A stretch of 64,000 nucleotides of DNA, taken from contig OMIX01000081.1 in NCBI GenBank assembly GCA_900299195.1, positions 1,407 to 65,406 of the forward strand, given 5' to 3'. A program made the translations under genes and the position numbers. This document shows, piece after piece, positions 35,707 through 64,000 of this stretch (position 1 is its first letter; each line of letters begins with the position of its first letter). The DNA is from Deltaproteobacteria bacterium. Lineage in GTDB: Bacteria > Bdellovibrionota > FAC87 > UBA2466. The notes below the pieces were generated by a model. The model saw nothing but the letters and a program-made list of their open reading frames with translations, did no database searches and had not been told where the DNA came from.

Positions 35707-35716
35707 TGAGGTCGGA

Positions 35717-42418: not shown

Positions 42419-42491
42419 TGCGATGTATCTTAACTCTAAACTTTAAAAAAATCGTCTTTAAAAGCCGTTCAGTTGAGCTTATGATTTGCTG

Positions 42492-44090: not shown

Positions 44091-44104
44091 TCTCAGGTTG
44101 AACT

Positions 44105-45457: not shown

Positions 45458-45472
45458 ATACGAGGAAAAATT

Positions 45473-47022: not shown

Positions 47023-47362
47023 ACGGAGTCCGATTACTACCCATATTTTAGATATCAGTCTTGGAAAGCCAGCGGCTGATGTTTCGTGCAAGCTTGAGAG
47101 GCAAACCACAAAATCGGATTGGGAAAAATTGGGAGAAGGGATGACTAACGCCGATGGACGACAGGAGAACCTATTTTCTGGCCCGCTCACGAGCGGAGTT
47201 TATCGACTGGAGTTTTTCACTAAGCCGTATTTTGAAAGAAAACAAACGAAAAGCTTTTATTCTTCAGTCACTGTGACTTTTGAAGTCACTGCGACCGAAG
47301 AACACTATCATGTTCCCTTACTTTTAAGCCCATTTGGATACTCAACCTATCGAGGAAGTTGA
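47015..47362 (+). CDS. uraH: 5-hydroxyisourate hydrolase (transthyretin-like)
   Basis: 115 aa with ITTHILDISLGKPAADV, HYHVPLLLSPFGYSTYRGS and the diagnostic C-terminal YRGS. Confidence 0.9.
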   Translation: MNKRSPITTHILDISLGKPAADVSCKLERQTTKSDWEKLGEGMTNADGRQENLFSGPLTSGVYRLEFFTKPYFERKQTKSFYSSVTVTFEVTATEEHYHVPLLLSPFGYSTYRGS

Positions 47363-47366
47363 CACT

Positions 47367-48716
47367 ATGAAAACTACATTCACTCAAAGCTCTATTTCTA
47401 CGATCACTCAGGAACTTCATTTAGCGAATCAACAGTTTCTTCACCAATACCCTGGGGGAACTCATGATCGCCAACCTGTTCATACCGTTTATGGAGGAGC
47501 TCAGATCTTTTCCAGCGATACGGCAAAAAAAATGAGTGGGGTAGCTTTGAAAAATTTGAAGGAGTATGCTCCAGATGCCAAAACGTTAATGCTAGCCTTG
47601 GGAGAAGAAAAAGCCGAACTCGAATTATGGTCTAAGATTTACTCCCGAATTGAAAAGAAATTAGTTGAAGAAGCAGTCGAAGATTTTCGAATCGATTACG
47701 AGGATGGTTACGGCACCCGGCCGGATGCTGAGGAAGATGGTCATGCTGAAACCGGAGCTTTAGAGGTCGCTAAAGGAATCGAACAAAATTCTTTGCCTCC
47801 TTTCTTGGGAATTCGGATTAAGCCTTTCTCAGAAGAGTGCCACAAACGCAGCATTCGCACCCTAGATATTTTTCTAACGACTTTACTCAATCGAACCGGA
47901 GGAAAATTACCCCCAAACTTCGTCGTCACTATTCCAAAAGTGACTCATCCTGAACAAATTTCTGCTTTGGTTGGTTTGCTTGAGATTTTAGAAAAGAATC
48001 ACCGGTTGTCGGTGGGGACCTTGAAGTTTGAATTCATGGTGGAGACCCCTCAGTCGATTTTGGGTTCACAGGGGAATTCTCCGCTACGAAGTTTTGTGGA
48101 GGCAGGAAAGGGTAGATGTGTGGGCGCCCACTTTGGAACGTACGACTACACTGCTGGTTGTGGAATCACAGCTCACTATCAAACCATGATTAACCCAGTT
48201 TGTGATTTTGCAAAACACGTGATGCAAGTTTCACTTATGGGATTACCGGTTCTTCTTTCTGATGGAGCTACTAATGTGATGCCTGTAGGTCCCCATCGAG
48301 TTATGGAGGGCAAGCCTTTGAGTGGGACTCAAATCCAGGAAAATAAAGCAGTGGTTCATCGAGCCTGGAAATTAAGTTACGATCACATTCGTCATTCCCT
48401 AGCGACGGGTTTCTATCAAGGGTGGGATCTTCATCCAGCCCAACTTCCCATTCGTTACGCTGCAACCTATGCCTTTTTCCTTGAAGCACTTCATTCAGCT
48501 TCCGATCGCCTTAAGGGATTTGTGGAAAAAGCTGCCAAAGCGACTTTGTTAGGGGATGTTTTTGATGATGCTGCTACTGGTCAAGGGCTGCTCAATTTCT
48601 TTTTAAGAGCTTTGAGCTGTGGGGCGATCACTCAAGATGAAGCATTAAAAACGGGTCTCACTATTGAAGAGATCCAAAGTCGATCCTTTATGAAGATATT
48701 AGAGCGCCGGCGGTAA
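47367..48716 (+). CDS. HpcH/CitE/malate-synthase-like TIM-barrel protein (function unknown, possibly glyoxylate-related)
   Basis: The ATG at 47367 lies after GAGGAAG, so the ORF-track TTG at 47334 is probably upstream of the true start. FEFMVETPQS and GAHFGTYDYTAGCG resemble the Mg-binding Glu/Asp blocks of the CitE/malyl-CoA lyase/malate synthase superfamily. It is the last gene of the uricolysis cluster. Confidence 0.4.
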   Translation: MKTTFTQSSISTITQELHLANQQFLHQYPGGTHDRQPVHTVYGGAQIFSSDTAKKMSGVALKNLKEYAPDAKTLMLALGEEKAELELWSKIYSRIEKKLVEEAVEDFRIDYEDGYGTRPDAEEDGHAETGALEVAKGIEQNSLPPFLGIRIKPFSEECHKRSIRTLDIFLTTLLNRTGGKLPPNFVVTIPKVTHPEQISALVGLLEILEKNHRLSVGTLKFEFMVETPQSILGSQGNSPLRSFVEAGKGRCVGAHFGTYDYTAGCGITAHYQTMINPVCDFAKHVMQVSLMGLPVLLSDGATNVMPVGPHRVMEGKPLSGTQIQENKAVVHRAWKLSYDHIRHSLATGFYQGWDLHPAQLPIRYAATYAFFLEALHSASDRLKGFVEKAAKATLLGDVFDDAATGQGLLNFFLRALSCGAITQDEALKTGLTIEEIQSRSFMKILERRR

Positions 48717-48719
48717 GAA

Positions 48720-49616
48720 ATGATTTGTCCTAATTGTCAGAGTTCTACGTTCACTAACGTAAAAATGGGCTTAATCAGTTGTGGGGGATGTCGTTTAATA
48801 CTTAATGGAGAATATACCCAACCAGAGTCGGTCAAAAATATTCATGAAGAATGGTTTAGCCCAAGTGGTAGCCAGGGAGTCGATTTTTGGCAAAGATCTT
48901 TCGACCAATTTAATCATAAGCGGACTTATGCACGAATTGTTAAACAGGGGTGTACCAAGGGTAAGCTGCTTGAAGTAGGAGTCGGCAACGGTTCCTTGTT
49001 GAAATTTATGAAAGATCAAGGCTTTGAGGTTGAAGGAGTTGACCTTTTAGAGTCTATTGCAGAAACAGTAAACAGGTTGCATCAAGTGAAAGTCTTCGGA
49101 GGTGGATTGGAGTCTATTCCAAAAGATCGGAAGTATGACCTGATTGTGGCTCATCATGTTCTCGAGCATACGTTAAACCCATTGGAATTTTTAACTTTTC
49201 TAAAGGGTTTACTAAAAGATACCGGGCTTCTGTTTCTGGCGGTTCCGAACATTGATTCTTGGGGAGCTTTTTTGCCGGGATGGGTGAGTTATCAACCCTA
49301 TCACCTTCTGTATTTCAACCGAGCTACTCTTGCACAGACCTTACAAAAATCTGGATTAAAAACCCGAGAGCTTTATTCCCATGAGTCATTTTCGGGTTGG
49401 TTAATTGCTTTGATTCAAACTCCCAAAAGGTTGTTTAGAAAATCGCTACTGGCCAAACCTTCCCCAAGTAAGGGGTTAATGAAACGTAACGTCATCGTAG
49501 TGAATCTCTATCGTTTAATCATGGTTGTCAGCGGAATGGTAACCTTTCCCTTACGGTGGGTTCAATCAAGATTAGGAAAAGGAGATGAACTGATTGCCGT
49601 CATTGAAAAGGCATGA
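48720..49616 (+). CDS. class I SAM-dependent methyltransferase with N-terminal zinc ribbon
   Basis: 298 aa with CPNC...CGGC, then SAM motif I (LLEVGVGNGSL) and the acidic motif II residue in VEGVDL. Confidence 0.65.
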   Translation: MICPNCQSSTFTNVKMGLISCGGCRLILNGEYTQPESVKNIHEEWFSPSGSQGVDFWQRSFDQFNHKRTYARIVKQGCTKGKLLEVGVGNGSLLKFMKDQGFEVEGVDLLESIAETVNRLHQVKVFGGGLESIPKDRKYDLIVAHHVLEHTLNPLEFLTFLKGLLKDTGLLFLAVPNIDSWGAFLPGWVSYQPYHLLYFNRATLAQTLQKSGLKTRELYSHESFSGWLIALIQTPKRLFRKSLLAKPSPSKGLMKRNVIVVNLYRLIMVVSGMVTFPLRWVQSRLGKGDELIAVIEKA

Positions 49617-49794: not shown

Positions 49795-50199
49795 GTGGAG
49801 ACAGGATACATCACAGCTTTTTGGTTCATCATCATATCCGCAATGACTGTGCCTTTAATGCTCGGCGTTGGATATCTTCTTAGACCCAAGGGTAAAGATA
49901 CCCGCAGAAAAATGACCTCTTATGAATGTGGTGAAGAACCCGTAGGGTCTGCATGGATTAAATTCAATATCAGGTTTTATATTGTCGCTATCGTTTTCAT
50001 TATTTTTGACGTGGAGATGGCGGCCATTTTTCCGGCAGCTACCGTGTTTAAAGAGTCCATTACTAATGGTTCTGTGGCTTTAGTTTTCAGTGAAATTTTT
50101 CTTTTCGTGGCCCTACTGTTGATTGGTCTTATTTACTGTTGGGTTCGCGGAGACTTGGAGTGGGTAAAAGGCGTAACTAAGTTCGCCCCCAATAAATAA
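49795..50199 (+). CDS. nuoA: NADH-quinone oxidoreductase subunit A (set 1)
   Basis: 134 aa with 3 TM helices, SYECGEEP and FIIFDVEMAAIFP motifs. GTG start. Confidence 0.85.
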   Translation: METGYITAFWFIIISAMTVPLMLGVGYLLRPKGKDTRRKMTSYECGEEPVGSAWIKFNIRFYIVAIVFIIFDVEMAAIFPAATVFKESITNGSVALVFSEIFLFVALLLIGLIYCWVRGDLEWVKGVTKFAPNK

Positions 50200-51332
50200 T
50201 GGTTCAATCAGCTCAATTTGCACATTCTTTAGAAGGTTGGTTTGGATTTCTTCCTCTTTGGGGTTGGGCGGCCATCTCAGCTTTCATAGTAATCTACTTT
50301 TTAGCCCTCCCTTTCGGTGGGTTAGCTACTTACATTGAAAGAAAAATTGCGGCCGACATGCAAGATAGAATTGGTCCTAACCGGGTAGGTCCTATTGGGT
50401 TATTTCAGTTCGCTGCCGATGCCATCAAGATGTTGTCTAAAGAGGATTTCATTCCCAAAGGTGGAGACCGATTCCTTTTTAACCTAGCTCCTTTGTTTGT
50501 GGTGGTGGGGTCATGTACGGCTTTTGCTGTTCTTCCTTTAAGCAAATATTTGATCGGTGCCGATGTAAATATCGGTGTGATCTTTATTTTAGCTGTAACT
50601 ACTTTAATTGCTCCTGGCCTTTTGTTGGGGTCCTGGGCCTCTGAAAACAAGTGGTCGCTTTTAGGGGGATTGAGAGCTGCTTCTCAGATTGTCAGCTATG
50701 AAATTCCTGTAGCCCTTTCTATTCTTCCCGTGGTCCTTATTTCAGGAAGTTTACAAATCGGGACTATCGTTGAACAACAAGGCTGGACAGTTTTTGGTGA
50801 AAATCCTGCGACCTACCACTTTTGGAATGCCTTTCATAATCCGTTTACTTTTTTCTCGATGTTTTTACTCTTCGTAGGCGGGCTAGCCGAAACTAATCGT
50901 ATTCCCTTCGACTTACCAGAAGCGGAATCCGAACTGGTCTCTGGGTTTAACACAGAGTTTTCAGGAATGCGTTTTGGTTTGTATGCATTGGGAGAATTCT
51001 GCGATGTTTTTGTCATGTCCGCGATGGTGACAGCCTTGTTCCTGGGTGGATGGCACATTCCCTTTTTAGATATTGAGAAATTAGGTTTTGCTTTACCTAC
51101 GGGTTTGGTCGCTTTCATTCAATTCCACGTCTTTATGATTAAGACACTTTTGGTGGTTTTTGTGGTGATGTGGTTGAGATGGACGCTTCCTCGGTTGCGA
51201 GTCGATCAATTGATGGGAATGTGTTGGAAAGGGCTCTTGCCGCTTGCATTCTTTAATGTGTTGGGAACTGCGCTTTGGATGTGGGCATTTAAAGGTCAGT
51301 CCCTCATGCAGCTATTGATGGGGCATGGGTGA
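50199..51332 (+). CDS. nuoH: NADH-quinone oxidoreductase subunit H (set 1)
   Basis: 377 aa with ERKIAADMQDRIGPNRVGP, SNNKW-like ENKWSLLGGLRAASQ and PFDLPEAESELVSGFNTEFSG. The ATG overlaps the nuoA stop by 1 nt. Confidence 0.95.
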   Translation: MVQSAQFAHSLEGWFGFLPLWGWAAISAFIVIYFLALPFGGLATYIERKIAADMQDRIGPNRVGPIGLFQFAADAIKMLSKEDFIPKGGDRFLFNLAPLFVVVGSCTAFAVLPLSKYLIGADVNIGVIFILAVTTLIAPGLLLGSWASENKWSLLGGLRAASQIVSYEIPVALSILPVVLISGSLQIGTIVEQQGWTVFGENPATYHFWNAFHNPFTFFSMFLLFVGGLAETNRIPFDLPEAESELVSGFNTEFSGMRFGLYALGEFCDVFVMSAMVTALFLGGWHIPFLDIEKLGFALPTGLVAFIQFHVFMIKTLLVVFVVMWLRWTLPRLRVDQLMGMCWKGLLPLAFFNVLGTALWMWAFKGQSLMQLLMGHG

Positions 51333-51335
51333 TTT

Positions 51336-51839
51336 ATGAATAAGGTTTTACTTCTGGCTCAAATACTAACTGTTGCTTCGGCGATCGTCGTTGGGTTTCA
51401 TCCCAACATCCTTTATGCCTCGGTCTTTTTGCTCTTCACTTTCTGTGGGGTGGCAGTCATGTTTTTATACGCTGGGGCCGATTTCCTGGCGGGTGCCCAA
51501 GTTATTATTTATGTGGGTGGCGTTACCATTCTGATTCTGTTCGCTATCATGTTAACTCAGTGGCTTTATAAAATTAAGTTGGCTGACATTCGTAACAAAA
51601 TGGTATTGCCAGGTGTTTTGGCGACTATCATTGGGGCTTTCTTGTACCGAGCGCTTCATCAGATGGTACTTTCTCTTCCTCCTCAGACTCCAGAAGCATT
51701 AGAAAAATTTTCGACAACTCCTAAAACAGCTTTAATTGGACAAGCTCTTTTAGGCAGTTATTTACTTCCTTTTGAGGCTATTACCATTCTCCTGTTAGGA
51801 GCTATGGTGGGAGCTGTTTGGTTAGCGAGGCCCGAATGA
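51336..51839 (+). CDS. nuoJ: NADH-quinone oxidoreductase subunit J (set 1)
   Basis: 167 aa with AGADFLAGAQVIIYVGGVTILILFAIML typical of NuoJ. It starts 3 nt after the nuoH stop, so there is no nuoI between them. Confidence 0.9.
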   Translation: MNKVLLLAQILTVASAIVVGFHPNILYASVFLLFTFCGVAVMFLYAGADFLAGAQVIIYVGGVTILILFAIMLTQWLYKIKLADIRNKMVLPGVLATIIGAFLYRALHQMVLSLPPQTPEALEKFSTTPKTALIGQALLGSYLLPFEAITILLLGAMVGAVWLARPE

Positions 51840-52162
51840 ACCAGCTCATTCAATTTAGTTCGAGTTTACAAGGTTACTTAGCAGTAGGGGCTATCCTTTT
51901 TGCTCTGGGAATCTTTTGTGTGATGACCCGTAAAAATGCCATTGGGATTTTGTTGGGAATTGAACTGATTTTAAATGCAGCGGGGATTAACTTTGTTGCA
52001 TTCAGTAAATTTAGAACTGGCTTGATCGACGGACAGATCGTCGCCCTTTTCATTATGCTGATTGCAGCAGCTGAAGCGGCGGTGGCTCTTGCCGTTATTT
52101 TACGTTTTTATCGGCTCAAGCAAACAATCGATGCCGATGAAGCAAGCATCATGAGGAACTAA
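51836..52162 (+). CDS. nuoK: NADH-quinone oxidoreductase subunit K (set 1)
   Basis: The start is set at the ATG at 51836 (ATGA overlap with the nuoJ stop). It has 3 TM helices and conserved membrane Glu residues in GIELILNA and AAAEAAVALA. Confidence 0.9.
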   Translation: MNQLIQFSSSLQGYLAVGAILFALGIFCVMTRKNAIGILLGIELILNAAGINFVAFSKFRTGLIDGQIVALFIMLIAAAEAAVALAVILRFYRLKQTIDADEASIMRN

Positions 52163-52163
52163 G

Positions 52164-54238
52164 ATGGCACAACAAGCTTTACTTATCGCCCTGTTTCCCT
52201 TGGTAGCGTTTGTCATCCAAGCGCTTTTTGGAAAGAAACTTCCACGCCACGGAGATTTTGTTTCTGTACTTGCTATTTTCGGTTCTTTTGCAGTCGCTAC
52301 GCCCATTTTTTTGAAGTTGGTAACTGAGGGGCATGTTTTTGATACGTTTCAAGTTTCCTGGATGGCTCTTCCCGGAGTTGAAGGGGCGGGGAAACTTAAT
52401 AGTGCAGTGAATTTGGTGGTAGGGGTTCTTATTAACAATCTGACCGCTATCATGTTGTTCATGGTGACTCTTTGTGCTTCCTTGATTCACCTTTTTTCTA
52501 CGGGATACATGCATGGCGAAGAAAGATATCATCTCTTTTTTGCATACATCTCGTTGTTCTCAGCGGGAATGTTAGGATTAGTGCTCTCTGATAATCTTCT
52601 AACCTTCTTTATGTGTTGGGAGTTGATGGGGCTGTGTTCTTATTTGCTCATCGGTTTTTATTACAAGAAGCCTTCCGCTATTAACGCCAGTATTAAAGCT
52701 TTCATGACCACTAGGGTAGGCGACACTATGTTCTTCCTAGGAATCGCAGGTCTCTACTACATTTTTGGAACGAGTAACTTCATGGCGATCTACAAAGCCA
52801 TTGAAACCGGAGTTGCGCACGATCTTACGATTGCGGGTTTTCCGGCTCTAGCCTTTATCGGATTTATGGTGATGATGGGAACCGTAGGGAAGTCAGCTCA
52901 ATTCCCTCTTCATGTGTGGTTGCCGGATGCTATGGAAGGTCCCACTCCTGTATCAGCCCTTATCCATGCTGCGACCATGGTGGCTGCCGGGGTATTTCTT
53001 TTAATTCGAATGTTCCCTTTGTTGGAAGCTTCTCATGTGGTGTTACCTGTGGTGGCCTATGTCGGGGCGATTACGGCGTTCCTTGCTGCTTGTATAGCGA
53101 TTGTTCAAGTGGACATTAAAAAGGTTTTGGCCTACTCCACCATCAGTCAGTTGGGCTACATGGTGATGGGAGTGGGTGTTGGCGCTTTTGCACCAGGCTT
53201 TATGCATTTGGTGACTCACGCTTGCTTCAAAGCTTGTCTGTTTTTGTGCTCGGGTTCGGTGATTCACTCAGTCCATACTCAGGACATGAGAGAGATGGGC
53301 GGATTGAAATCTAAAATGCCTATCACTTTGCCACGATGTTTATTGCAACCTTGGCGATTAGTGGGGTTCCAGGATTTTCTGGCTTTGTCAGTAAGGATCG
53401 AATTTTGGGTGGTGCTTTAGCCTATAGTATGGAACATCATGGGCACTATCTCATTCCTCTGCTTGGATTTGCGACAGCAGGCATTACTGCTTTTTACATG
53501 TTTCGCATGATCTACATGACTTTCTTTGGTCATGCTCGCGACGAACACAAACACCATCATGCTCATGAACAGCCTTTGACCATGACCCTTCCGCTGATGA
53601 TATTGGCAGGTTTGTCCTTTGCCATTGTTTTTGCAGGACCTACTGGAATTGAATCGATCGATCATGTCATGCCAGTGAAATGGTTCGATCACGCTTTGGA
53701 AGGTGCTCAAAAAGAAATGGGAATCGCCGAACACTTATCGCCCGAAGCGGAAGCTATTCATCATCATGCTCATGGGTTAGCTCTGATGATTTCTTTAGCA
53801 GTGGCCGGATTGGGGATTTTCATTTCATCGATCACTTATCTAAAGCATTTGATTAAAGCCGATGCGATCAAAAAATGGGTGGGTCCGGTTTATACTCTTT
53901 TGTGGAATAAGTACTACTTTGATGAGTTGTATCTTGGAATTCTCATTCAAAAGGGTCTACTCAACTTTAATCGTATGCTGGCTACTTTCGATGACAAATT
54001 TGTCGATAGAGTTTTGGTGGACGGATGGCGAGACGCCACTATGGTAGTTAAGAGTTTCGTTGGAAAGTTTGATGATATCGTTGTTGACCGAATCATGGTG
54101 GATGGAACTGCTGATGTGACTGCAGGCGGGGGTTGGATCGTTCGTCAGTTTCAGACCGGAAAAGTTCAGCAGTATTTAGTTTTGACTGTGATGTTTATTA
54201 TTGTGGCTTTGTTTTATGCAAATTTGGGCTTGAAGTAG
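52164..54238 (+). pseudogene. nuoL: NADH-quinone oxidoreductase subunit L (set 1), interrupted by a 1-nt frameshift near 53327-53330
   Basis: Two ORFs (52164-53420 and 53336-54238) together form a full NuoL. Frame 0 reads ...GGLKSKMPIT and the -1 frame continues FATMFIATLAISGVPGFSGFVSKD, colinear with intact NuoL set 2 ([34 protein letters not shown]). A TTT where TTTT is expected restores the frame. This may be a sequencing error rather than true decay. Confidence 0.8.
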
Positions 54239-54265
54239 AGTCCAAGGTTTTTTGAAAGGGAGAGT

Positions 54266-55780
54266 ATGTTTCCGATTCTATCCGTAATGACCTATATCCC
54301 CTTGTTGGGCATGGTAGCTGTGTTGGCTACACCTCGTAATAATCCAAATCTGGTGAGATGGATTTCAGTGGTGGCCACAGCCATTCCTCTTGCCTTGGGT
54401 GTTTACCTTTATATGCATTTCGACAGATCGACGGCGAGCATGCAGTTCGTTGAGCAGTTTGATTGGATCAAGCCGTTCAACATTCAATATTTTATGGGAA
54501 TCGATGGATTGAGTGTTCCCATGGTACTTTTGACGGTTCTTTTATCCTTCCTGTGCGTGATTGCCTCTTGGGGAATTGAAGATGGGGTTAAAGGGTACTA
54601 TGCGATGTTTTTGTTCCTAGAAACGGGAATGATGGGGGTTTTCTGTGCTTTGGATTTCTTCCTTTTCTTCCTTTTTTGGGAAATCATGCTACTTCCGATG
54701 TACTTCCTCATTGGAATTTGGGGAGGTAAAGAGAAGGTTTACGCCGCAATTAAATTCTTCCTTTATACGCTGTTTGGTTCCGTTCTCATGTTGTTGGTGA
54801 TGGTGGGAATGTATTATTACTCCGAACCTCACACTTTCAATCTATTACAGTTAGCTCAAAGCCATCAATTTGTAGGAAAGACCATTGCGCTTTTCGGCCA
54901 TCAGTTGCCGCTAGATAAACTTTTCTGGATTGGCCTTTTCATCGGATTTGCTATCAAAGTTCCAGTTTGGCCTTTTCATACTTGGTTGCCTTGGGCGCAC
55001 GTGGAAGCTCCCACTGCGGTATCCGTCATTCTGGCGGGTGTCCTTTTGAAAATGGGAACTTATGGAATCTTAAGAATGAACTATCCTATCCTTCCCGAAG
55101 CTACGATGTGGGCTTCAAACTTCATGATGGATCTTGGAGTCATTAACATTCTTTATGGAGCTTTCTGTGCGATGGCTCAAAAGGATCTTAAGAAGTTGGT
55201 GGCTTATTCTTCCGTCTCTCACATGGGATATGTGATTGTAGGAATGGCAAGCTTCACGACTGCCGGGGTTAATGGTGCTGTTCTTCAGATGTTCAATCAC
55301 GGAACTTCCACTGCGATGTTGTTTTTGCTAGTAGGCGTTGTTTATGATCGAGTTCACCACCGTTGGATAGTGAAACCAGATGGATCTAAAGGGTTTGGTG
55401 GAATTGCGTCAGTAGTTCCTGTCTATACCGGCATTATGGCCATTGGTCTTTTTGCCTCTTTGGGTTTGCCGGGATTAAGCGGTTTTATCAGTGAAGCCTT
55501 AGTGTTCTTAGGCGCTTTTTCTAATCCCAAATTCCAAACTTATGTTGTGATTGGATCACTGGGTATTCTCTTAGGAGCTGCTTATTTGTTGTGGATGTTC
55601 ATGAGAGTTTTTCTCGGACCTCTCAATGAAGAACACAAAGAACTTGAAGATATCAATGGAAGAGAGATTTTCACTTTGGCTCCATTGTGTGTTCTGGTGA
55701 TCGTTTTAGGAGTTTATCCCATGCCGGTTTTAAATCTCATGGGTTCTACTATTGCAAAGCTATTAACGTTATTCTCTTAA
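54266..55780 (+). CDS. nuoM: NADH-quinone oxidoreductase subunit M (set 1)
   Basis: 504 aa with FFLFWEIMLLPMYFLIGIWGG, FHTWLPWAHVEAPTAVSVILAGVLLKMGTYG and LVAYSSVSHMG motifs. Confidence 0.95.
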   Translation: MFPILSVMTYIPLLGMVAVLATPRNNPNLVRWISVVATAIPLALGVYLYMHFDRSTASMQFVEQFDWIKPFNIQYFMGIDGLSVPMVLLTVLLSFLCVIASWGIEDGVKGYYAMFLFLETGMMGVFCALDFFLFFLFWEIMLLPMYFLIGIWGGKEKVYAAIKFFLYTLFGSVLMLLVMVGMYYYSEPHTFNLLQLAQSHQFVGKTIALFGHQLPLDKLFWIGLFIGFAIKVPVWPFHTWLPWAHVEAPTAVSVILAGVLLKMGTYGILRMNYPILPEATMWASNFMMDLGVINILYGAFCAMAQKDLKKLVAYSSVSHMGYVIVGMASFTTAGVNGAVLQMFNHGTSTAMLFLLVGVVYDRVHHRWIVKPDGSKGFGGIASVVPVYTGIMAIGLFASLGLPGLSGFISEALVFLGAFSNPKFQTYVVIGSLGILLGAAYLLWMFMRVFLGPLNEEHKELEDINGREIFTLAPLCVLVIVLGVYPMPVLNLMGSTIAKLLTLFS

Positions 55781-55794
55781 TTTAAGAGGTGTTT

Positions 55795-57276
55795 GTGTCG
55801 GCTGAAACGTTACATAATATTAAGTTGTTTGCGCCTGAAGTCTGCCTGACTTTATTTTTGTGCTTACTTTTTATCGTGGATGGTTTGATACCTAAATCAA
55901 GAACAAATAAAGTCCCAATGATGGTGACGATAATAGCCTGTATTGCAGCGGTTCTTTTGACTTGCAAAGTGGGAACAACTTCAGAGGCTTATTTTGGCGG
56001 CATGCTAGTGAATGATGGCCTGACCAAGTTCTTTCGATACTTCTTCTTTTTCACCGCTGCGGTTAGTAGCTATGTGGCCTTCGGTTCTTCGGAAATCGAA
56101 AATCGAAGTCGCATGGAATTTTCTTTGCTGTTGATTTGCACGACCATTGGTATGGGAATTATGGCAGGAGCTACCCATCTTTTGGTTCTCTATATGGGAA
56201 TTGAGATGGTGAGTATCATCTCTTTCGTGATGGCCGGATTTAAGAGGGATAATTTGAGGTCGAATGAAGCCTCTTTTAAATATTTGGTCTTTGGGGGTGT
56301 GGCCTCTGGACTGATGATTTACGGTTTTAGCCTGTTATACGGATTGACGGGTTCGTTAAATTATCCACAAATCACAGCTTATCTCAGTTCAACTCAGGGA
56401 AACTTGGGATTGGTTTTTTGGTTGTCCTTGGTCCTCATTTATGGGGGACTAGCCTATAAGATCTCTGCGTTTCCAATGCATTTTTGGGCTCCGGATGTTT
56501 ACGAAGGAGCGCCCACTCCAGTAGCAACGTTTTTTAGTGTGGGGCCTAAGGCTGCCGGTTTTGCGGCCTTTTTGAGAATGGTATTGACCGTATTTGCTGC
56601 CAAAACTGCAGAGGGAAACTGGCAAATGCTTCCCGGAATTTCTTTAACTTCAGCCATTGCCGTGATTTCAGCTTTAACAATGGTTGTGGGTAATTTGTCC
56701 GCGATTGGTCAAACCAATGTGAAACGAATTTTAGCGTATTCGAGCATCGCTCATGTGGGATACATGCTGATGGGATTGGTGACGCTGGATCGTTCCGGCC
56801 TGACTGCCATCATCTTTTATTTGATTGCCTATTGTGCCATGAACATCGGAGCCTTTTGGGTAGTTGGAGTTGTTTCAAATTTACGGGGCAGAGAAGATTT
56901 GGACGCTTTTAGAGGGATGGGATGGTCGATGCCCGTTTTAGGAACCTGCATGGGAGTCTTTATTTTTTCTCTCACCGGAATCCCCATGTTTTCCGGATTC
57001 ATTGGAAAGTTTTTGATTTTTGGTTCGGTGATTAAATCGGGCGGCTTTTTGTGGTTGGCGCTGCTGGGGGTTCTCAATAGCGTAGTTTCCTTGTACTACT
57101 ACATTAAAATCTTGAAATCGATGTGGTTAGACAAACCGGAAATTGCTGAATCTTTGACGTTGTCACCCTATCATGCTTTCGGACTTGTAGGGCTTGCAAT
57201 TCCTACAGTGGTTTTGGGTTTGTATTTTACCCCTATTCTCGAATTTGCAGAAAGAACACTTTCAAACATCCTATAA
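55795..57276 (+). CDS. nuoN: NADH-quinone oxidoreductase subunit N (set 1)
   Basis: The GTG at 55795 lies 5 nt after AAGAGG; the ORF-track start at 55789 overlaps the RBS. Motifs are YMGIEMVSI, KYLVFGG, MHFWAPDVYEGAPTPV and ILAYSSIAHVGY. Confidence 0.9.
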   Translation: MSAETLHNIKLFAPEVCLTLFLCLLFIVDGLIPKSRTNKVPMMVTIIACIAAVLLTCKVGTTSEAYFGGMLVNDGLTKFFRYFFFFTAAVSSYVAFGSSEIENRSRMEFSLLLICTTIGMGIMAGATHLLVLYMGIEMVSIISFVMAGFKRDNLRSNEASFKYLVFGGVASGLMIYGFSLLYGLTGSLNYPQITAYLSSTQGNLGLVFWLSLVLIYGGLAYKISAFPMHFWAPDVYEGAPTPVATFFSVGPKAAGFAAFLRMVLTVFAAKTAEGNWQMLPGISLTSAIAVISALTMVVGNLSAIGQTNVKRILAYSSIAHVGYMLMGLVTLDRSGLTAIIFYLIAYCAMNIGAFWVVGVVSNLRGREDLDAFRGMGWSMPVLGTCMGVFIFSLTGIPMFSGFIGKFLIFGSVIKSGGFLWLALLGVLNSVVSLYYYIKILKSMWLDKPEIAESLTLSPYHAFGLVGLAIPTVVLGLYFTPILEFAERTLSNIL

Positions 57277-57305
57277 GTTGAATTGACTAAGAAAGGAGGA
57301 AACGC

Positions 57306-57671
57306 ATGGAAGCATTTTTACCTGTCGGATTCCTTCTGATTTTTGCTGTTTTGTTGTGCATAGGTTTGTTTACGGTCAAAAGATTGCTCGGGCCCAGAAA
57401 TCCATTAGCATCAAAATTGAGTGTTTACGAATGTGGGGTGGCTACCCCTGAGGGTTCGGCTCGGGCCCCCTTTAAAACCAGTTTTTATTTGATCGCAGTT
57501 TTATTTCTCCTATTTGACGTTGAAGCGGCCTTCTTTTTTCCTTGGGCATTGGTTTACAAAGAATCTTTGGTCCAGGGACCCGGATTGCTTATTGCCATGT
57601 TGGTTTACATGGGGCTTTTAGTTCTTGGTCTGGTTTACATTTTTAGAAAGGACTGCCTCAAGCTGAATTGA
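57306..57671 (+). CDS. nuoA: NADH-quinone oxidoreductase subunit A (set 2)
   Basis: 121 aa with VYECGVA and FLLFDVEAAFFFP motifs. AAGGAGG lies 6 nt upstream of the ATG. Only 29 nt separate it from nuoN set 1. Confidence 0.9.
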   Translation: MEAFLPVGFLLIFAVLLCIGLFTVKRLLGPRNPLASKLSVYECGVATPEGSARAPFKTSFYLIAVLFLLFDVEAAFFFPWALVYKESLVQGPGLLIAMLVYMGLLVLGLVYIFRKDCLKLN

Positions 57672-57672
57672 T

Positions 57673-58737
57673 ATGGAATGGACAGATATCATTATAACTG
57701 CAATCAAGACGGCAGTGATTTACTTAGGAATGGTCCAAGTTGTTCCTATCATGCTCATTGTGGAAAGACGTGGCGCTGCCTTGATGCAAGATCGCCCTGG
57801 ACCTAATCGAGTGGGGCCTTTTGGATTATTTCAGCCAGTTGCCGATGTGATTAAAATGATGATGAAGGAAGTGACTATTCCTCGTCAGGTCAACAAGGCC
57901 CTCTATTTGTTGGGACCTTTTCTGGTCCTTTTTCCAGCCTCTTTAGTGGTAGCTGCTTTACCCTTTGGTGATTTTTTTACTGTGTTCGAGAAAAACTATC
58001 CACTTCAGGTTGCCAATATCGACGTCGGAGTTCTTTACATTCTTGCTATTGGGTCCTTGGGAATCTACGGCATTTTATTTGGTGGATGGGCTTCGAATAA
58101 CAAATTCTCGTTAATGGGGGCGATGCGGTCCTCTTCTCAAATTATCAGTTATGAAATCCCATTGGGACTTGCCGCTTGCAGCGCAGTTCTTTGGTACGGA
58201 CATTTTAATTTAAGAGAGATGGTTTACACACAAGAGGGGACTTTGATGGGAGTGCTTCCTAACTGGGGAATATTTTATCAGCCCTTGGGATTTTTACTGT
58301 TTTTCATTTCTGCTTTTGCTGAAACCAATCGACTCCCTTTTGATTTGCCCGAGACAGAAGCCGAACTCGTGGCAGGGTTTCACACTGAATATGGGCCGAT
58401 GGATTTTGGAACTTTCTTCATGGCGGAATACATGAACATGGCAACGATGTCGGGTTTGATGGTAGCTATGTATTTTGGAGGGTGGCATTTGCCGTGGATT
58501 TCAGATGCGACTTTGCTGCAATGGTTAGGTTCTAGAAATCTTCTTGCGGCGCTACAGGTTTTATCCGTAGTAGTAAAAATATCCTTTTTCATGTTGGTGT
58601 TTGTGTGGGTTCGGTGGACTTTACCCAGATTTCGATTCGATCAACTCATGCGACTGGCATGGCGGAATTTAATTCCGCTGGGTTTGATTAATCTCGTGAT
58701 CACCGCTGTCATAATGTATTTTCGAGGGGCTGCATGA
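57673..58737 (+). CDS. nuoH: NADH-quinone oxidoreductase subunit H (set 2)
   Basis: 354 aa with ERRGAALMQDRPGPNRVGP, SNNKFSLMGAMRSSSQ and PFDLPETEAELVAGFHTEYGP motifs. It starts 1 nt after the nuoA stop. Confidence 0.95.
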   Translation: MEWTDIIITAIKTAVIYLGMVQVVPIMLIVERRGAALMQDRPGPNRVGPFGLFQPVADVIKMMMKEVTIPRQVNKALYLLGPFLVLFPASLVVAALPFGDFFTVFEKNYPLQVANIDVGVLYILAIGSLGIYGILFGGWASNNKFSLMGAMRSSSQIISYEIPLGLAACSAVLWYGHFNLREMVYTQEGTLMGVLPNWGIFYQPLGFLLFFISAFAETNRLPFDLPETEAELVAGFHTEYGPMDFGTFFMAEYMNMATMSGLMVAMYFGGWHLPWISDATLLQWLGSRNLLAALQVLSVVVKISFFMLVFVWVRWTLPRFRFDQLMRLAWRNLIPLGLINLVITAVIMYFRGAA

Positions 58738-59243
58738 GAGAGATTTTATTTGTTGCTTTTAGTCTCTTTACTATTGGAGCAGCCAGTGGCGTTTTCTTAG
58801 CACGAAACCCGGTCTACAGCGCCTTCAGTCTGATTCTATCTTTTTTTGGTCTGTCGGGGCTTTATCTGCTTTGGGGATCGACCTTTATGGCGATGATTCA
58901 AATCTTAATTTATACCGGGGCCATTGTGGTTCTCTTCGTTTTTGTGGTGATGTTACTGAATCTTCAGGTCAATCGAGAGAATCCTTCGAATCTTCTTACC
59001 TTGGGAATCTCTGCGGGAGCGGTTTGGTTTTTTTCATTGATACTTCTTCGAGTTTTAACTCGCGCCATTCCCAATAAGATCCCTGAAATTCCAACGGATC
59101 AATTAAGAACCATTTCTAAATTGTTGTTTACTAGGTACCTCTGGCCATTCGAAGTCCTCTCTCTGTTTTTATTGGTCATGATAATTGCTATTTTTGCCAT
59201 CACGAGAACTCAGGAAATTCCTCACGGGGGAGAACAGCGATGA
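58734..59243 (+). CDS. nuoJ: NADH-quinone oxidoreductase subunit J (set 2)
   Basis: 169 aa with WGSTFMAMIQILIYTGAIVVLFVFVVMLL. It overlaps nuoH by 4 nt, so there is no nuoI. Confidence 0.9.
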   Translation: MREILFVAFSLFTIGAASGVFLARNPVYSAFSLILSFFGLSGLYLLWGSTFMAMIQILIYTGAIVVLFVFVVMLLNLQVNRENPSNLLTLGISAGAVWFFSLILLRVLTRAIPNKIPEIPTDQLRTISKLLFTRYLWPFEVLSLFLLVMIIAIFAITRTQEIPHGGEQR

Positions 59244-59554
59244 ATTTTCCGACTTCGCTTACTTATTGGTCTCATTTCGTTGCGGTCGCTATGTTTGCAC
59301 TGGGGCTTCTCGGATTTCTCCTGAGAAAAAATACTATCGTGGTTCTCATGTGCATCGAATTGATGTTAAACGCTGTCAATTTGCTACTGATTGAAACATC
59401 GATGCGAACCAATACTCCCGATGGAATTATTCTCGTTGTTTTTGTGGTCACTGTAGCAGCTGCAGAAGTCGCAGTGGGGTTGGGAATTGTATTGAATCTT
59501 TACAGGCTGAAGGGTTCAGTGAATTTAGATCATTTTAAGAGTTTGCAAGGATAG
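59240..59554 (+). CDS. nuoK: NADH-quinone oxidoreductase subunit K (set 2)
   Basis: 104 aa with CIELMLNAVNL and AAAEVAVGLGI conserved Glu positions. Confidence 0.9.
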   Translation: MNFPTSLTYWSHFVAVAMFALGLLGFLLRKNTIVVLMCIELMLNAVNLLLIETSMRTNTPDGIILVVFVVTVAAAEVAVGLGIVLNLYRLKGSVNLDHFKSLQG

Positions 59555-59556
59555 TT

Positions 59557-61461
59557 ATGCTCTCTGCGCCTCATATTTTACTTAGTATGATTTTGTTACC
59601 CCTCCTGGGTAGCTTTTTAAATGGCGTGGTTATCCGGCCAGCTTTTCCCAAAAGAGCCGGCGTGATCGCAACCTTTTTTGCAGTCTGTTCGTTTGCGTGC
59701 GCATTATTTTTGTTTTTCCATTTGAACCACGATATCACGGCCGTTCATTGGGCCACCGAATGGTTTAACTCAGGGGAGTTTAAGCAATTTTGGGGATTCA
59801 AATTTGATGCCCTTACAGCCGTGATGGCACTCGTGGTTACCGGAATCGGTTCCTTAATTCATCTTTACTCCATTGGGTATATGTCCGAGGAAAGAGGTCC
59901 GAGTCGGTACTTTGCTTATTTAAATTTGTTTCTTTTCAACATGCTTGTTCTCATCACTTCGGACAATCTCTTAGGACTGTTTGTCGGTTGGGAGGGCGTT
60001 GGTCTTTGTTCTTATCTGCTTATTGGATATTGGTATGAGGATTTAGATAAAGCAAAAGCCGGGATGAAAGCATTTTTAGTCAATCGGATTGGAGATGCCG
60101 GATTTTTAATTGGGATTTTTTACTGTTATCAAATTTTTCATACTCTTCGGTTTGATGAAATAGCCCAATTACTTGCTACTTCGAGCCAATTTGATCTTCA
60201 CTTTTTAAACATTGCTTCATTTTTCTTGTTTGTGGGCGCCACTGGAAAATCGGCTCAAATTCCACTCTATGTATGGTTGCCAGACGCGATGGCGGGTCCG
60301 ACTCCCGTGAGTGCACTTATTCATGCGGCGACGATGGTCACTGCAGGGGTGTATTTGATTTGTCGGATGAATTTCCTGTACATGCTGACAGCAGATACTA
60401 ATGCAATGATTGCTTGGGTGGGGGTTGCGACCGCTCTTTTTGCAGCACTGATTGCGACCGCTCAGAGAGATATAAAAAAAGTTTTGGCCTATTCTACTGT
60501 GAGTCAGTTGGGTCTAATGTTTTTAGCTGTAGGATCTCGAGCTTATTTTGCGGCTGTTTTTCATCTCATGACGCATGCTTTTTTTAAAGCCCTTCTCTTT
60601 CTGGGAGCGGGCAGCGTGATTCACGGTTTGCATGGAGAGCAGAATATTTGTCATATGGGGGGGCTTCGTAAGAAAATGCCCGGAACTTTCCTTACTTGTT
60701 TAATTGCAACTGCGGCAATTTGCGGAATCCCCCCACTGTCCGGTTTTTTTAGTAAAGACACTATTCTTTTTAGTACGTTAGCTTCTGGAAACACTCAGAG
60801 TTTGACATTGTGGTTATTGGGTTTAGTGGCTTCTACTTTGACTGCCTTTTATATGGCACGAATGTTTATTTTGGTCTTTTTGGGAGAATATCGAGGAGAG
60901 GCTCATCCTCACGAAAGTCCTTGGGTAATGATGTTTCCCTTAGTCCTGTTAGCGATAGGCAGTGCTTTGAGTGGATTATTGGGTGTTCCTCATGGGCTTC
61001 ATTGGATTCCAAATTACATGCAACATTATTTAGCTAAAGTTCTTGTCGAGTTCCCAGAACAACCCACAGTGGTTTCTGAACATGCGGCCATGATAGTTGC
61101 GACCGGTTTGGCGGTTGTCGGTATTGCCACCGCTGGGTTCTTTTACGGGAAGCTCACTCGAGCTGCCTCAGCTCAGAAGGTATTTCGCCCAATGCAGCTG
61201 ATCTTTATGAACAAATTTTGGATTGATGAACTTTACGCAATTATTTTTGTTGGGCCCTTCAAAATACTGTCCAGATTTTTTGCGCGGGTTGTAGATCCTA
61301 CTATCATCGATGGTTTAGCTTTATTTCCCGCTCGGATTTCCTCGGGATTGGGTATTTTGCTCAACATAATTCAATCGGGTCTTGTTCAGTTTTATTTAAT
61401 GATCTTGGTGTTGGGGGGTTTGTGGGTTTTGTGGCACTCCCTGAAAGGGTGGGTAATTTAA
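59557..61461 (+). CDS. nuoL: NADH-quinone oxidoreductase subunit L (set 2), intact
   Basis: 634 aa with GWEGVGLCSYLLIGYW, GKSAQIPLYVWLPDAMAGPTPVSALIHAATMVTAG, LAYSTVSQLG and a C-terminal lateral-helix region. Confidence 0.95.
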   Translation: MLSAPHILLSMILLPLLGSFLNGVVIRPAFPKRAGVIATFFAVCSFACALFLFFHLNHDITAVHWATEWFNSGEFKQFWGFKFDALTAVMALVVTGIGSLIHLYSIGYMSEERGPSRYFAYLNLFLFNMLVLITSDNLLGLFVGWEGVGLCSYLLIGYWYEDLDKAKAGMKAFLVNRIGDAGFLIGIFYCYQIFHTLRFDEIAQLLATSSQFDLHFLNIASFFLFVGATGKSAQIPLYVWLPDAMAGPTPVSALIHAATMVTAGVYLICRMNFLYMLTADTNAMIAWVGVATALFAALIATAQRDIKKVLAYSTVSQLGLMFLAVGSRAYFAAVFHLMTHAFFKALLFLGAGSVIHGLHGEQNICHMGGLRKKMPGTFLTCLIATAAICGIPPLSGFFSKDTILFSTLASGNTQSLTLWLLGLVASTLTAFYMARMFILVFLGEYRGEAHPHESPWVMMFPLVLLAIGSALSGLLGVPHGLHWIPNYMQHYLAKVLVEFPEQPTVVSEHAAMIVATGLAVVGIATAGFFYGKLTRAASAQKVFRPMQLIFMNKFWIDELYAIIFVGPFKILSRFFARVVDPTIIDGLALFPARISSGLGILLNIIQSGLVQFYLMILVLGGLWVLWHSLKGWVI

Positions 61462-61462
61462 C

Positions 61463-63004
61463 ATGACCGACTCCTTATTGGCTTATCTCGTGTTTGTTCC
61501 TCTAGTCGGGGTTCTTTTATGCATTCCTTTATCTCGTCAACTCGCCAGATGGGTTGCTCTCGTGACATCGTTGGTAGGAGTGGGTCTAGCTTTTATTCTT
61601 TACGAGAAGTTTGACGCTTCCGCTTCATCCCAATTGCAAATGGTTTGGTCACTTCCCTGGATTGAGAGTTACGGCATCAAGTTGAGTTTAGCTGTTGATG
61701 GATTAAGTTTTCCATTGGTACTTTTGATTAAAGTAATGATGCCCATAGCCCTATTAGCCAGTTGGGGCGAGGATAGAAAACTTAGAGCCTTTGTCAGTTC
61801 TTCCCTAGTGCTCGACTCGGCGATGACCGGAACATTTTTAGCGACCGATATTTTCCTGTTTTACGTTTTTTGGGAATTGATGTTAATTCCGATGATTCTT
61901 TTGATCGGCGTTTGGGGAAGTCAGAATCGAATTTATGCGGCGTTAAAATTTTTCATGTTTACGTTTGCAGGCAGTGTTTTAATGTTGGTGTCCATTCTTT
62001 GGATCTTTACGACTTATCACCAACAATTTGGAGTTTTTTCCGGTGAAATCGCCCAATTTTATCGACTCAATTTTTCGACGGTTCCGGTAGTTTGGGGGCT
62101 TTCAGTTCAGGACTTGATTTTTTGGGGAATGACGGTGGCATTTTTAATTAAGGTGCCTTTGTTTCCTCTTCACACCTGGTTGCCAGATGCCCATGTACAA
62201 GCTCCCACAGGAGGGAGTGTTCTTTTGGCTGCGGTACTTTTAAAGATGGGCACCTACGGCTTAATGAGATTTTCTATTCCTTTGGCTCCGGAAGCTTTTA
62301 TTAAAGCGATTCCCGTTCTTTCAACTCTGAGTCTTATTGGAATTGTCTATGGGGCTTGGGTGGCTTTTCAACAAACAGATATCAAGAAATTGGTCGCCTA
62401 TTCTTCGGTAAGTCATTTAGGGTTTGTGGTTCTTGGACTATGCACTTTAAGTCGAGAGGGTCTTACGGGGAGTGTTTTGCAAGTGATCAATCACGGAGTG
62501 TCGAGTGGTGCGCTTTTTCTTTTAGTTGGAATTCTTTACGAACGTCGGCACAGTCGGCAGTTTGAAGATTTTGGAGGCCTGGCCTCTGTGATGCCAAGAT
62601 ATGCCTTCTTTTTGGTGTTTGTGGCCTGTTCTAGTATGGCGGTGCCCGGACTGAATGGATTTGTGGGCGAATTTTTAATTCTTCTGGGGGCCTTTAAAGC
62701 CAATCCTCTTTGGGCTGGCATTGCAGTGACAGCGGCTTTGTTCGGGGCTCTGTACTTGCTCGTGATGTTAAAACAAGTTTTGTTTGGGCCAGTTACATCT
62801 GGGGAAAATAAAAACTTAAAAGATTTAAGCTTAAGAGATTGGGCGAGTTTAGTTCCTATTACAATTATGATTTTAGCTTTAGGTGTTCGGCCTAATTTTC
62901 TACTTAGAAAAATTGATCCCGCGTTAGATAGTTTTTGGAAAGTTTCATTAAAAAAGTCGTCTATCGATGCTGCTATCTTCGGGAAGCGAGATAAAAAAGT
63001 ATGA
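61463..63004 (+). CDS. nuoM: NADH-quinone oxidoreductase subunit M (set 2)
   Basis: 513 aa with FYVFWELMLIPMILLIGVWGS, LHTWLPDAHVQAPTGGSVLLAAVLLKMGTYG and LVAYSSVSHLG motifs. Confidence 0.95.
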   Translation: MTDSLLAYLVFVPLVGVLLCIPLSRQLARWVALVTSLVGVGLAFILYEKFDASASSQLQMVWSLPWIESYGIKLSLAVDGLSFPLVLLIKVMMPIALLASWGEDRKLRAFVSSSLVLDSAMTGTFLATDIFLFYVFWELMLIPMILLIGVWGSQNRIYAALKFFMFTFAGSVLMLVSILWIFTTYHQQFGVFSGEIAQFYRLNFSTVPVVWGLSVQDLIFWGMTVAFLIKVPLFPLHTWLPDAHVQAPTGGSVLLAAVLLKMGTYGLMRFSIPLAPEAFIKAIPVLSTLSLIGIVYGAWVAFQQTDIKKLVAYSSVSHLGFVVLGLCTLSREGLTGSVLQVINHGVSSGALFLLVGILYERRHSRQFEDFGGLASVMPRYAFFLVFVACSSMAVPGLNGFVGEFLILLGAFKANPLWAGIAVTAALFGALYLLVMLKQVLFGPVTSGENKNLKDLSLRDWASLVPITIMILALGVRPNFLLRKIDPALDSFWKVSLKKSSIDAAIFGKRDKKV

Positions 63005-64000
63005 ACCTTGTTGTCGATTACTTTTTGGTGCCTTTATTACCGGTGGTGGCGTTTATTTTCACAGGTCTTATCATTATTGGACTACAATGCTTCAACAAGC
63101 CATCGCTTAGGCCCTTGATCAAGTGGGTTGGGTTAATGGGTCCAGCAGCTGCCATTGCAGCGACTTGGTATTTGTTCAAATCTTCTCCTTTGGCCTACAC
63201 GAGTGCTCAACCTGGGAATTATGAAGCTTGGTTAAATGAGTTTATACAATCGTATCAGCTAGACTCTACGACTATGCTTTGGTATTGGGCGATTGGGGTG
63301 TTTTCTTTTCTTTCGTTCCTATTTATTGAGGTCTACTTCAAAGATTTTGCAGAGCTTCCTGAAATTTTAATTTTACTTCAGTTTGTGTCAGCTTCGATGA
63401 TGTTACTGATTTCAGCTAACAGCCTGTTGATGGTTTTTATGGCTCTTGAACTGATGTCTCTCCCCACTTACGTTCTTGTTGGCATTGAAAAAGAAAAGAC
63501 TCATGGAGCTGAAGCTTCGCTGAAATACTTTTTATTTGGATCTTTTGCCACCGTACTTTTACTTTTTTCAATTGCCCTAATTTATGCTTACACCGGGAGT
63601 TTGCATTTTTCACAGATCTCAAACTTCTTGCTAGCGCCCATTGGGGGTGGCAATGCAGCGGGACTCATGGTTTTAGCAGCTTCGGCTTTGTTCATTATTT
63701 CGGTGGGTTTTAAACTGGGTATGGCTCCATTTCATATGTGGCTTCCTGATGCTTATGAAGGAGCTTCAACTCCCATCACTGGATTCATGGGAAGTGCGAT
63801 CAAATTGGCTGGTTTTGGTATGGCCCTGCGTCTCTGGTGGGGCATGTTGTCTCCGATATCGACCCATTGGGTTTCCATTTTAGGTAGCTTAGCAGTTCTT
63901 ACTATGTTTGTCGGAAACCTGGGGGCATTAAAGCAGAGAAATCTAAAACGGCTTTTTGCCTATTCGAGCGTTTCTCACGCAGGTTACTTAGTGCTTGGGT
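63001..64000 (+). CDS. nuoN: NADH-quinone oxidoreductase subunit N (set 2), 3'-truncated by window end
   Basis: This gene is not in the ORF track because there is no stop before the window end. My own translation from the ATG at 63001 (ATGA overlap with the nuoM stop) gives MNLVVDYFLVPLLP...MALELMSLPTYVLVG...KYFLFGSFAT...FHMWLPDAYEGASTPITGFMGSAIKLAGF...KRLFAYSSVSHAGYLVLG, open through 64000. Confidence 0.9.
   Translation, partial: MNLVVDYFLVPLLPVVAFIFTGLIIIGLQCFNKPSLRPLIKWVGLMGPAAAIAATWYLFKSSPLAYTSAQPGNYEAWLNEFIQSYQLDSTTMLWYWAIGVFSFLSFLFIEVYFKDFAELPEILILLQFVSASMMLLISANSLLMVFMALELMSLPTYVLVGIEKEKTHGAEASLKYFLFGSFATVLLLFSIALIYAYTGSLHFSQISNFLLAPIGGGNAAGLMVLAASALFIISVGFKLGMAPFHMWLPDAYEGASTPITGFMGSAIKLAGFGMALRLWWGMLSPISTHWVSILGSLAVLTMFVGNLGALKQRNLKRLFAYSSVSHAGYLVLG

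Follow-up and report, generated by a model that had tools for sequence, protein, structure and literature searches.

The contig OMIX01000081.1 of a Deltaproteobacteria bacterium belonging to Bdellovibrionota (assembly GCA_900299195.1) contains, within the 64,000-nucleotide (nt) stretch analyzed here and hereafter called the window, two consecutive sets of the seven genes coding the membrane arm of respiratory complex I, each in the order nuoA-H-J-K-L-M-N. The sets are ancient, either paralogues or xenologues, and their layout, which is real and conserved, is for the most part an ordinary arrangement of complex I genes, specific to this clade; what it adds to the arrangements already known is the direct tandem of two membrane-only sets, together with a series of 14, 10 and 7 genes that the second cluster forms across lineages. 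The reading that we favor, to which a probability of roughly 0.55 is assigned as a whole, is that two membrane arms, both complete and functional, are encoded at the locus, set 1 representing a divergent lineage specific to Bdellovibrionota and located beside mfd(-gpsA), and set 2 a member of the canonical bacterial complex I family; the two arms would be co-transcribed and would use peripheral subunits encoded elsewhere, most likely a single set shared by both.

From position 49795 to the end of the window, the + strand holds fifteen open reading frames (ORFs), which Pfam resolves into two consecutive A-H-J-K-L-M-N series (Table 1). The ORF list and the Pfam assignments bear out a first-pass annotation of this DNA, which had described the same gene order twice on one strand, and the gene junctions that it had placed coincide exactly with those of the ORF list. 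In set 1, nuoA1 and nuoH1 have one base in common, nuoH1 and nuoJ1 are 3 nt apart and nuoJ1 overlaps nuoK1 by 4 nt, the nuoK1 start being the ATG that overlaps the nuoJ1 stop, the same start found in the relative L003. In set 2, a gap of 1 nt lies between nuoA2 and nuoH2, and the H2/J2, J2/K2 and M2/N2 pairs overlap. The junctions between A and H and between H and J are thus too tight, in both sets, to hide a further gene. The spacer between the two sets (gttgaattgactaagaaaggaggaaacgc) contains a Shine-Dalgarno sequence, and neither a terminator-like hairpin nor a promoter-like site was found within its 29 nt; direct inspection of the sequence therefore agrees with the earlier description of a short spacer with a ribosome-binding site and without a hairpin. 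The last gene, nuoN2, is cut by the window end; in relatives the full-length protein has 489-495 amino acids.

Table 1. Genes of the two membrane-arm sets and the spacer between them (window coordinates; NuoK residues in E. coli numbering).
Feature	Set	Position	Strand	Family match and residues
nuoA1 (ND3 homologue)	1	49795..50199	+	PF00507 E=4e-31; YECG loop, FDVE motif
nuoH1 (ND1 homologue)	1	50199..51332	+	PF00146 E=4e-108; NF004741 314.7 bits, cut-off 305; 22/23 invariant charged residues
nuoJ1	1	51336..51839	+	PF00499 E=1.7e-30
nuoK1	1	51836..52162	+	PF00420; both membrane Glu, E36 and E72
nuoL1	1	52164..54238	+	PF00361, PF00662, PF01010 across two ORFs; ~691 amino acids once repaired
nuoM1	1	54266..55780	+	TIGR01972 592 bits, cut-off 264; E144, K234, K265, E407
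nuoN1	1	55789..57276	+	TIGR01770 390 bits, cut-off 333; E133, K217, K247, K395
Spacer, 29 nt		57277..57305	+	GAAAGGAGG ribosome-binding site
nuoA2	2	57306..57671	+	PF00507 E=8.5e-28
nuoH2	2	57673..58737	+	PF00146 E=4.8e-112; NF004741 321.7 bits, cut-off 305; 23/23 invariant charged residues
nuoJ2	2	58734..59243	+	PF00499
nuoK2	2	59240..59554	+	PF00420; E36, E72
nuoL2	2	59557..61461	+	NF005141 equivalog 708 bits, cut-off 556; 123/125 invariant columns
nuoM2	2	61463..63004	+	TIGR01972 544 bits
nuoN2	2	63001..64000, cut by window end	+	PF00361 on residues 139-333

The peripheral arm is not represented in this region. E. coli NuoB, NuoCD, NuoE, NuoF, NuoG and NuoI gave no tblastn match anywhere in the 64 kb of the window at E<=1e-3, and no peripheral-arm family was detected by Pfam among the other window ORFs, which confirms the earlier claim that no Q- or N-module gene is present at the locus. 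The remaining ORFs were assigned by Pfam to housekeeping genes, including lon, dnaJ, grpE, mutS, mfd and gpsA.

Comparison of the corresponding subunits of the two sets gave amino acid identities of 38% for NuoA, 41% for NuoH, 27% for NuoJ, 44% for NuoK, 40% for NuoL, 41% for NuoM and 33% for NuoN; the value for NuoA agrees with the 30-40% that had been estimated by eye. A recent duplication can be discarded, since the sets are only 27-44% identical and fall in separate clades. Both sets were aligned with E. coli and nine canonical operons, and the residues expected of working subunits were found in each of them: E144, K229, H334, H338, K342, K399 and D400 of NuoL, the NuoM and NuoK residues listed in Table 1, and E133, K217 and K247 of NuoN, with K395 also present in NuoN1 (NuoN2 is cut before this position). 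The YECG loop and the FDVE motif occur in both NuoA copies, and all the motifs named in the first-pass annotation were recovered, i.e., besides FDVE and the glutamate pair of NuoK, PFDLPE.E.ELV.GF.TE in NuoH, WLPDAM in NuoL, HTWLP..H..APT in NuoM and H.W.PD.YEGA.TP in NuoN. The invariant charged residues of NuoH are complete in set 2 and lack a single one in set 1, where the substitution is H226N; by our reading of the alignment, they would include residues of the cytoplasmic loops that form the quinone tunnel and contact NuoB and NuoD. When all invariant columns of NuoH are considered, 68 of 72 are kept in set 2 and 56 of 72 in set 1, which is therefore farther from the canonical enzymes; set 1 is nonetheless the better conserved of the two within its own lineage.

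All seven membrane subunits are recognized by Pfam in both sets. As for the narrower NCBIfam models, the cut-offs are passed by both copies of NuoH (NF004741) and NuoM (TIGR01972), by NuoN1 (TIGR01770) and NuoL2 (NF005141), and by NuoK1 with two NuoK equivalogs; NuoA and NuoJ score under the narrow equivalog cut-offs and over those of Pfam. With L003 as the reference, the ratio of nonsynonymous to synonymous substitution rates (dN/dS) lies at 0.02-0.06 in all genes of the two sets with estimable dS. Both sets are under strong purifying selection.

One feature of set 1 had been overlooked when the two sets were first described. The presence of both sets stands, yet nuoL1 carries a 1-nt deletion near 53323-53327 that is missing from the relatives L094 and L003 and that splits the gene into two ORFs (52164-53420 and 53336-54238); at this site the window reads ATCAC-TTTGCC, L094, which is 96% identical, reads ATCACTTTCGCC, and L003 reads ATTACGTTTGCG, both relatives being in frame. 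Set 1 could on this account be a cluster of decaying pseudogenes, with the frameshift as the first sign of decay, an explanation that the deletion itself would support and that we nevertheless hold to be very improbable. Indeed, nuoL1 is intact in relatives of 96% and 87% identity, dN/dS is 0.03-0.05 on each side of the shift and 0.02-0.04 in the other set-1 genes where it can be estimated, and set 1 is better conserved than set 2 (87-95% versus 80-93% amino acid identity to L003). NuoL1 also keeps D178, besides all the NuoL residues listed above. The lost base adjoins a T run (ACTTTG), which we take as a typical site of sequencing or assembly error. Because the relatives are in frame and purifying selection acts on both sides of the shift, the deletion is probably an error of sequencing or assembly in this short stretch of T, or else a lesion of very recent origin, and not the expression of general decay. 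A generally decayed set, which the first-pass annotation had named as an outcome that would overturn its interpretation, was thus not observed: what is present is a lone frameshift within a gene under strong purifying selection. Programmed frameshifting was also considered and rejected, as ACTTTG is no slippery heptamer and the close relatives are in frame. The short nuoL1 of L093 is likewise not a case of decay, being due to a scaffold gap of 100 N.

The tandem of 14 genes is also found in at least five related genomes of uncultured Bdellovibrionales: L003 (87% identity), L001 (~70%; a contig of 2.98 Mb, ERZ25039592 contig_2782), L006 and L007 (65%) and L092 (62-64%). The tandem lies 3′ of mfd-gpsA in the two relatives with an annotated upstream flank, L001 and L092. 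The homologues of NuoH1 and NuoH2 come from metagenome-assembled genomes (MAGs) labelled as Bdellovibrionales, Bdellovibrionaceae or Bdellovibrionota, and in public MAG annotations the NCBI protein accessions of the NuoH proteins are seven numbers apart, which corresponds to the spacing of H1 and H2 in the tandem. A sister lineage, comprising L086/L095, L088 and L096 (with assemblies GCA_013565675.1, contig JACCDV010253520.1, GCA_964609695.1 and GCA_964636255.1), displays a related layout of 17 genes, in which mfd(-gpsA) is followed by A-H-J-K-L-M-N, then by A-C-E-F-H-J-K-L-M-N and by a gene for a TPR protein; the second cluster includes nuoC, nuoE and nuoF, and lacks nuoB, nuoD, nuoG and nuoI. 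No description of this partial peripheral complement was found in the papers searched. The finding of C, E and F in the sister lineage indicates that the number of peripheral genes in the set-2 cluster varies, while its membrane genes persist.

Set 1 adjoins mfd(-gpsA) in L001, L092, L086, L088 and L096, and in the window a urate-degradation cluster intervenes; this comparison of the mfd site covers the fetched lineages, cultured Bdellovibrio set 1 lying outside the sample. A lone A-H-J-K-L-M-N cluster resembling set 2 occurs in Bdellovibrio sp. HCB117 (NZ_CP178622), in Pseudobdellovibrio sp. HCB154 (NZ_CP176530) and in six MAGs, and no other nuo gene is present within about 10 kb of the Bdellovibrio and Pseudobdellovibrio clusters; likewise, the Q-module genes (nuoB, C, D and I) are absent from the 10 kb flanks of the relatives examined. 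Outside the lineage, the search with NuoH2 retrieved contigs mostly from Bacteroidota among the matches listed, where the canonical 14-gene operon is found, and the closest relative of NuoH2 (52-54% identity) is in L090, with an 11-gene A-B-C-D-H-I-J-K-L-M-N operon. In three loci from Thermoanaerobaculia/Acidobacteriota (L008, L009 and L031) the genes are ordered A-E-F-G-H-J-K-L-M-N, with B, C, D and I absent at the locus.

Neighbor-joining trees with 200 bootstraps were built for NuoH, NuoL, NuoM and NuoN. In all four, the set-1 sequences of the window lineage and those of L086 and L088 form a clade with 100% bootstrap, and the set-2 sequences of the window lineage form another one with the same value; the earlier claim that the two sets are old paralogues is thus confirmed by set-wise clades for each of these proteins. 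The Bdellovibrio and Pseudobdellovibrio clusters also group at 100%, and join the H2 sequences of L086 and L088 at 89%. The branching among set 2, Bacteroidota, the 11-gene operons of the L090 type, Acidobacteriota and the Bdellovibrio set has bootstrap values below 50-60%. Among proteins of solved structure, NuoA1 best matches the cyanobacterial NdhC (88 bits) and NuoH1 best matches NdhA (245 bits) of the photosynthetic NDH-1 complex, both ahead of the bacterial NuoA and NuoH, and the best match of NuoH2 is the NuoH of M. smegmatis. The matches to NdhC and NdhA may give a clue to how set 1 originated; membership of NDH-1 is not claimed.

Part of this arrangement was already known. The Bdellovibrio nuo operon was termed “split” by Degli Esposti 2015 (PMC4758237), and Tan et al. 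2026 (PMC13147790) reported a nuoAHJKLMN cluster at the same site in all Bdellovibrionota, with an additional nuo cluster in the predatory ones, 37.5-41.5% identical to the first, which forms a single operon of all 14 genes in Peredibacter and not in Bdellovibrio. The locus in the window is similar to these clusters, as it has a membrane-only nuoAHJKLMN set at a conserved site and a second set that is similarly diverged (27-44% here). Unlike in Peredibacter, where the second set is a full 14-gene operon, the second set also contains only A-H-J-K-L-M-N, and starts 29 nt behind the first one; unlike in the Bdellovibrio and Pseudobdellovibrio loci fetched, where the cluster resembling set 2 stands alone, it is in tandem with set 1. 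Neither the 14-gene tandem nor the A-C-E-F-H-J-K-L-M-N intermediate is described in the Bdellovibrionota nuo papers examined. The first-pass annotation had stated that its proposal would be reduced to a mere split operon if the layout proved ordinary in the clade, with a dedicated peripheral cluster for each set elsewhere. The layout did prove ordinary, being found in every relative examined, in public annotation and, in outline, in the literature; dedicated clusters are considered below as a rival explanation.

In the mechanism that we propose, each arm would comprise NuoA, NuoH, NuoJ and NuoK to L, M and N, i.e., the membrane part of the quinone tunnel and the E-channel together with three antiporter-like pumps, and both arms would be made from one long transcript. 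A single 14-gene transcript, already suggested in the first-pass annotation, is plausible because the spacer is short and devoid of a terminator, and because the end of nuoN1 runs 4 nt into nuoA2 in L086; at this level of plausibility, judged from gene spacing, the suggestion is retained. Since neither arm can reduce quinone alone, both are predicted to assemble with NuoB, NuoC, NuoD and NuoI, and with NuoE, NuoF and NuoG, encoded elsewhere, as in a split operon; docking onto NuoB/C/D/I is also suggested by the conserved residues of NuoA and NuoH, which would be sensible only beside a Q-module. As regards the second cluster, its peripheral genes may have been lost stepwise, from the 14 genes of Peredibacter, known from the literature, through A-C-E-F-H-J-K-L-M-N in the sister lineage, to A-H-J-K-L-M-N in the window; we infer stepwise removal as the direction of this change. 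A single set of peripheral-arm genes would then supply both arms, giving rise to two complex I isoforms that differ in their quinone-tunnel and pumping subunits.

Sharing of this kind appears the most likely arrangement because the set-2 membrane genes persist under selection while the peripheral genes of the same cluster dwindle, and because the NuoC family linked to set 2 seems to have no close member on the contigs of the window lineage: with the NuoC of L088 as query, matches were found only in the sister lineage and in unrelated phyla among the best 120, a weak negative. The matches P0319 and P0355, followed up for a peripheral arm in the same genome, turned out to be canonical operons of unrelated organisms. 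The most specific form of the proposal, namely that one peripheral arm is common to two co-expressed and anciently diverged whole arms, that the resulting isoforms differ even in NuoA and NuoH, and that the 14/10/7 series records the resolution of a redundancy, is put forward tentatively, at somewhat less than even odds. Three considerations weigh against the interpretation adopted here. The nuoL1 frameshift, if real, leaves set 1 without a full NuoL in this sequence; the evidence is confined to the nuo loci, and the peripheral-arm gene sets may number one or two; and co-transcription of the two sets would speak against a simple transcriptional switch between isoforms.

The main rival explanation is that of an ordinary double split operon, in which the organism would possess two complex I enzymes, both of them complete; each membrane set would have its own nuoBCD(EFG)I cluster elsewhere, and nothing would be shared. 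This is rather unlikely in our view, although it has several precedents. Among the former Deltaproteobacteria, nuo genes are routinely split between clusters, an example being the myxobacteria with their nuoEFJKLMN and nuoIHGDBA clusters (PMC2330069), which resemble the present case in that complex I genes occupy two or more loci and a single genome has more than one gene set, and differ from it in the point of the split and in the mixing of membrane and peripheral genes. The Acidobacteriota loci, with B, C, D and I elsewhere, follow the same principle; many bacteria carry two complex I isozymes; and nuoC, nuoE and nuoF, retained at set 2 in the sister lineage, imply that dedicated peripheral genes were once present. 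Yet in Peredibacter one peripheral set is mentioned, that of the 14-gene cluster, beside the extra nuoAHJKLMN (PMC13147790), and the NuoC search reported above, within its best 120 matches, also points weakly away from a second set. Should each membrane set prove to have its own peripheral cluster, the locus would consist of two split operons placed end to end.

A different possibility is that no canonical peripheral arm is involved in the function of one P-module or of both, which would act as a cation/proton antiporter of the Mrp type or with another redox partner. The absence of peripheral genes from the 64 kb of the window and from the 10 kb flanks of the relatives is in keeping with it, and so is the occurrence in marine actinomycetes (Salinispora, Streptomyces and Kocuria) of partial nuoAHJKLMN operons, which, according to PMC6676996, citing Penn and Jensen 2012, have been proposed as extra ion pumps. 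These operons consist of the same seven genes, likewise ordered A-H-J-K-L-M-N, lack peripheral genes and occur as an extra copy; the likeness is one of layout only, as they belong to another phylum and stand beside a complete nuoA-N operon, whereas both copies are partial here. This possibility is improbable, since a stand-alone antiporter would have no need of the quinone-tunnel residues, nor of those in the loops contacting NuoB and NuoD, that are conserved in NuoA and NuoH. Moreover, NuoM1, NuoN1, NuoL2 and NuoM2 score 120-310 bits with the Mrp, Hyf and Mbh models against cut-offs of 430-1100, both NuoH copies are under the FpoH cut-off and over that of the NuoH equivalog, and each set includes a NuoA and a NuoH, so that neither set is assigned to the Mrp or Hyf/Mbh families. 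No conserved candidate partner gene was found beside the cluster across the lineages compared.

Cyanobacteria assemble several NDH-1 isoforms, among them NDH-1L and NDH-1MS, by placing alternative NdhD/NdhF modules on one common core, which provides a precedent for alternative membrane modules on a shared core. In that system only the distal antiporter-like subunits are exchanged, whereas in the window the whole arm is doubled, including NuoA, NuoH, NuoJ and NuoK. If two arms do share one peripheral arm, this would be the first exchange of a whole complex I P-module, quinone tunnel included, and a natural experiment on how far the Q-module interface tolerates partners of about 40% identity; it could also explain a tuning of the coupling ion, of the quinone type or of the pumping stoichiometry in predatory and related Bdellovibrionota.

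Further observations concern the genes surrounding the two sets. The urate-degradation cluster (window 42486-48716) sits between gpsA and nuoA1, and encodes a membrane urate oxidase (Urate_ox_N) whose C-terminal domain is cupredoxin-like, together with an amidohydrolase, an allantoicase, a 2-oxo-4-hydroxy-4-carboxy-5-ureidoimidazoline (OHCU) decarboxylase, a 5-hydroxyisourate (HIU) hydrolase and a DUF6986 protein. Among the closest relatives, it is whole in L093 and present from the allantoicase onward in L094, and L003 has at least the downstream part of it. L001, L092 and L096 lack the cluster; in these, gpsA is within a few hundred bases of nuoA1, and no more than one small unannotated ORF separates the two. 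Immediately 5′ of nuoA1, at window positions 48720-49616, there is a gene for an S-adenosylmethionine (SAM)-dependent methyltransferase; L003, L093 and L094 are without it, and in these relatives the DUF6986 gene is followed by about 180 nt and then by nuoA1. Three other window ORFs, at 45-1487, 23170-24522 and 30477-32300 (480, 450 and 607 amino acids), match no Pfam family at E<=1e-5.

Directly 3′ of nuoN2, L001, L006, L007 and L092 have two conserved hypothetical genes (202 and 223 amino acids, with no Pfam match) and a FecCD/ABC/periplasmic-binding transporter. The same block of hypothetical and transporter genes is located at 16899-21055 in L001, at 16882-21012 in L092 and at 32303-36388 in the window, where it is found instead upstream of RDD-mfd-gpsA; its different position suggests that the surroundings of the nuo locus were rearranged in the lineage of the window.

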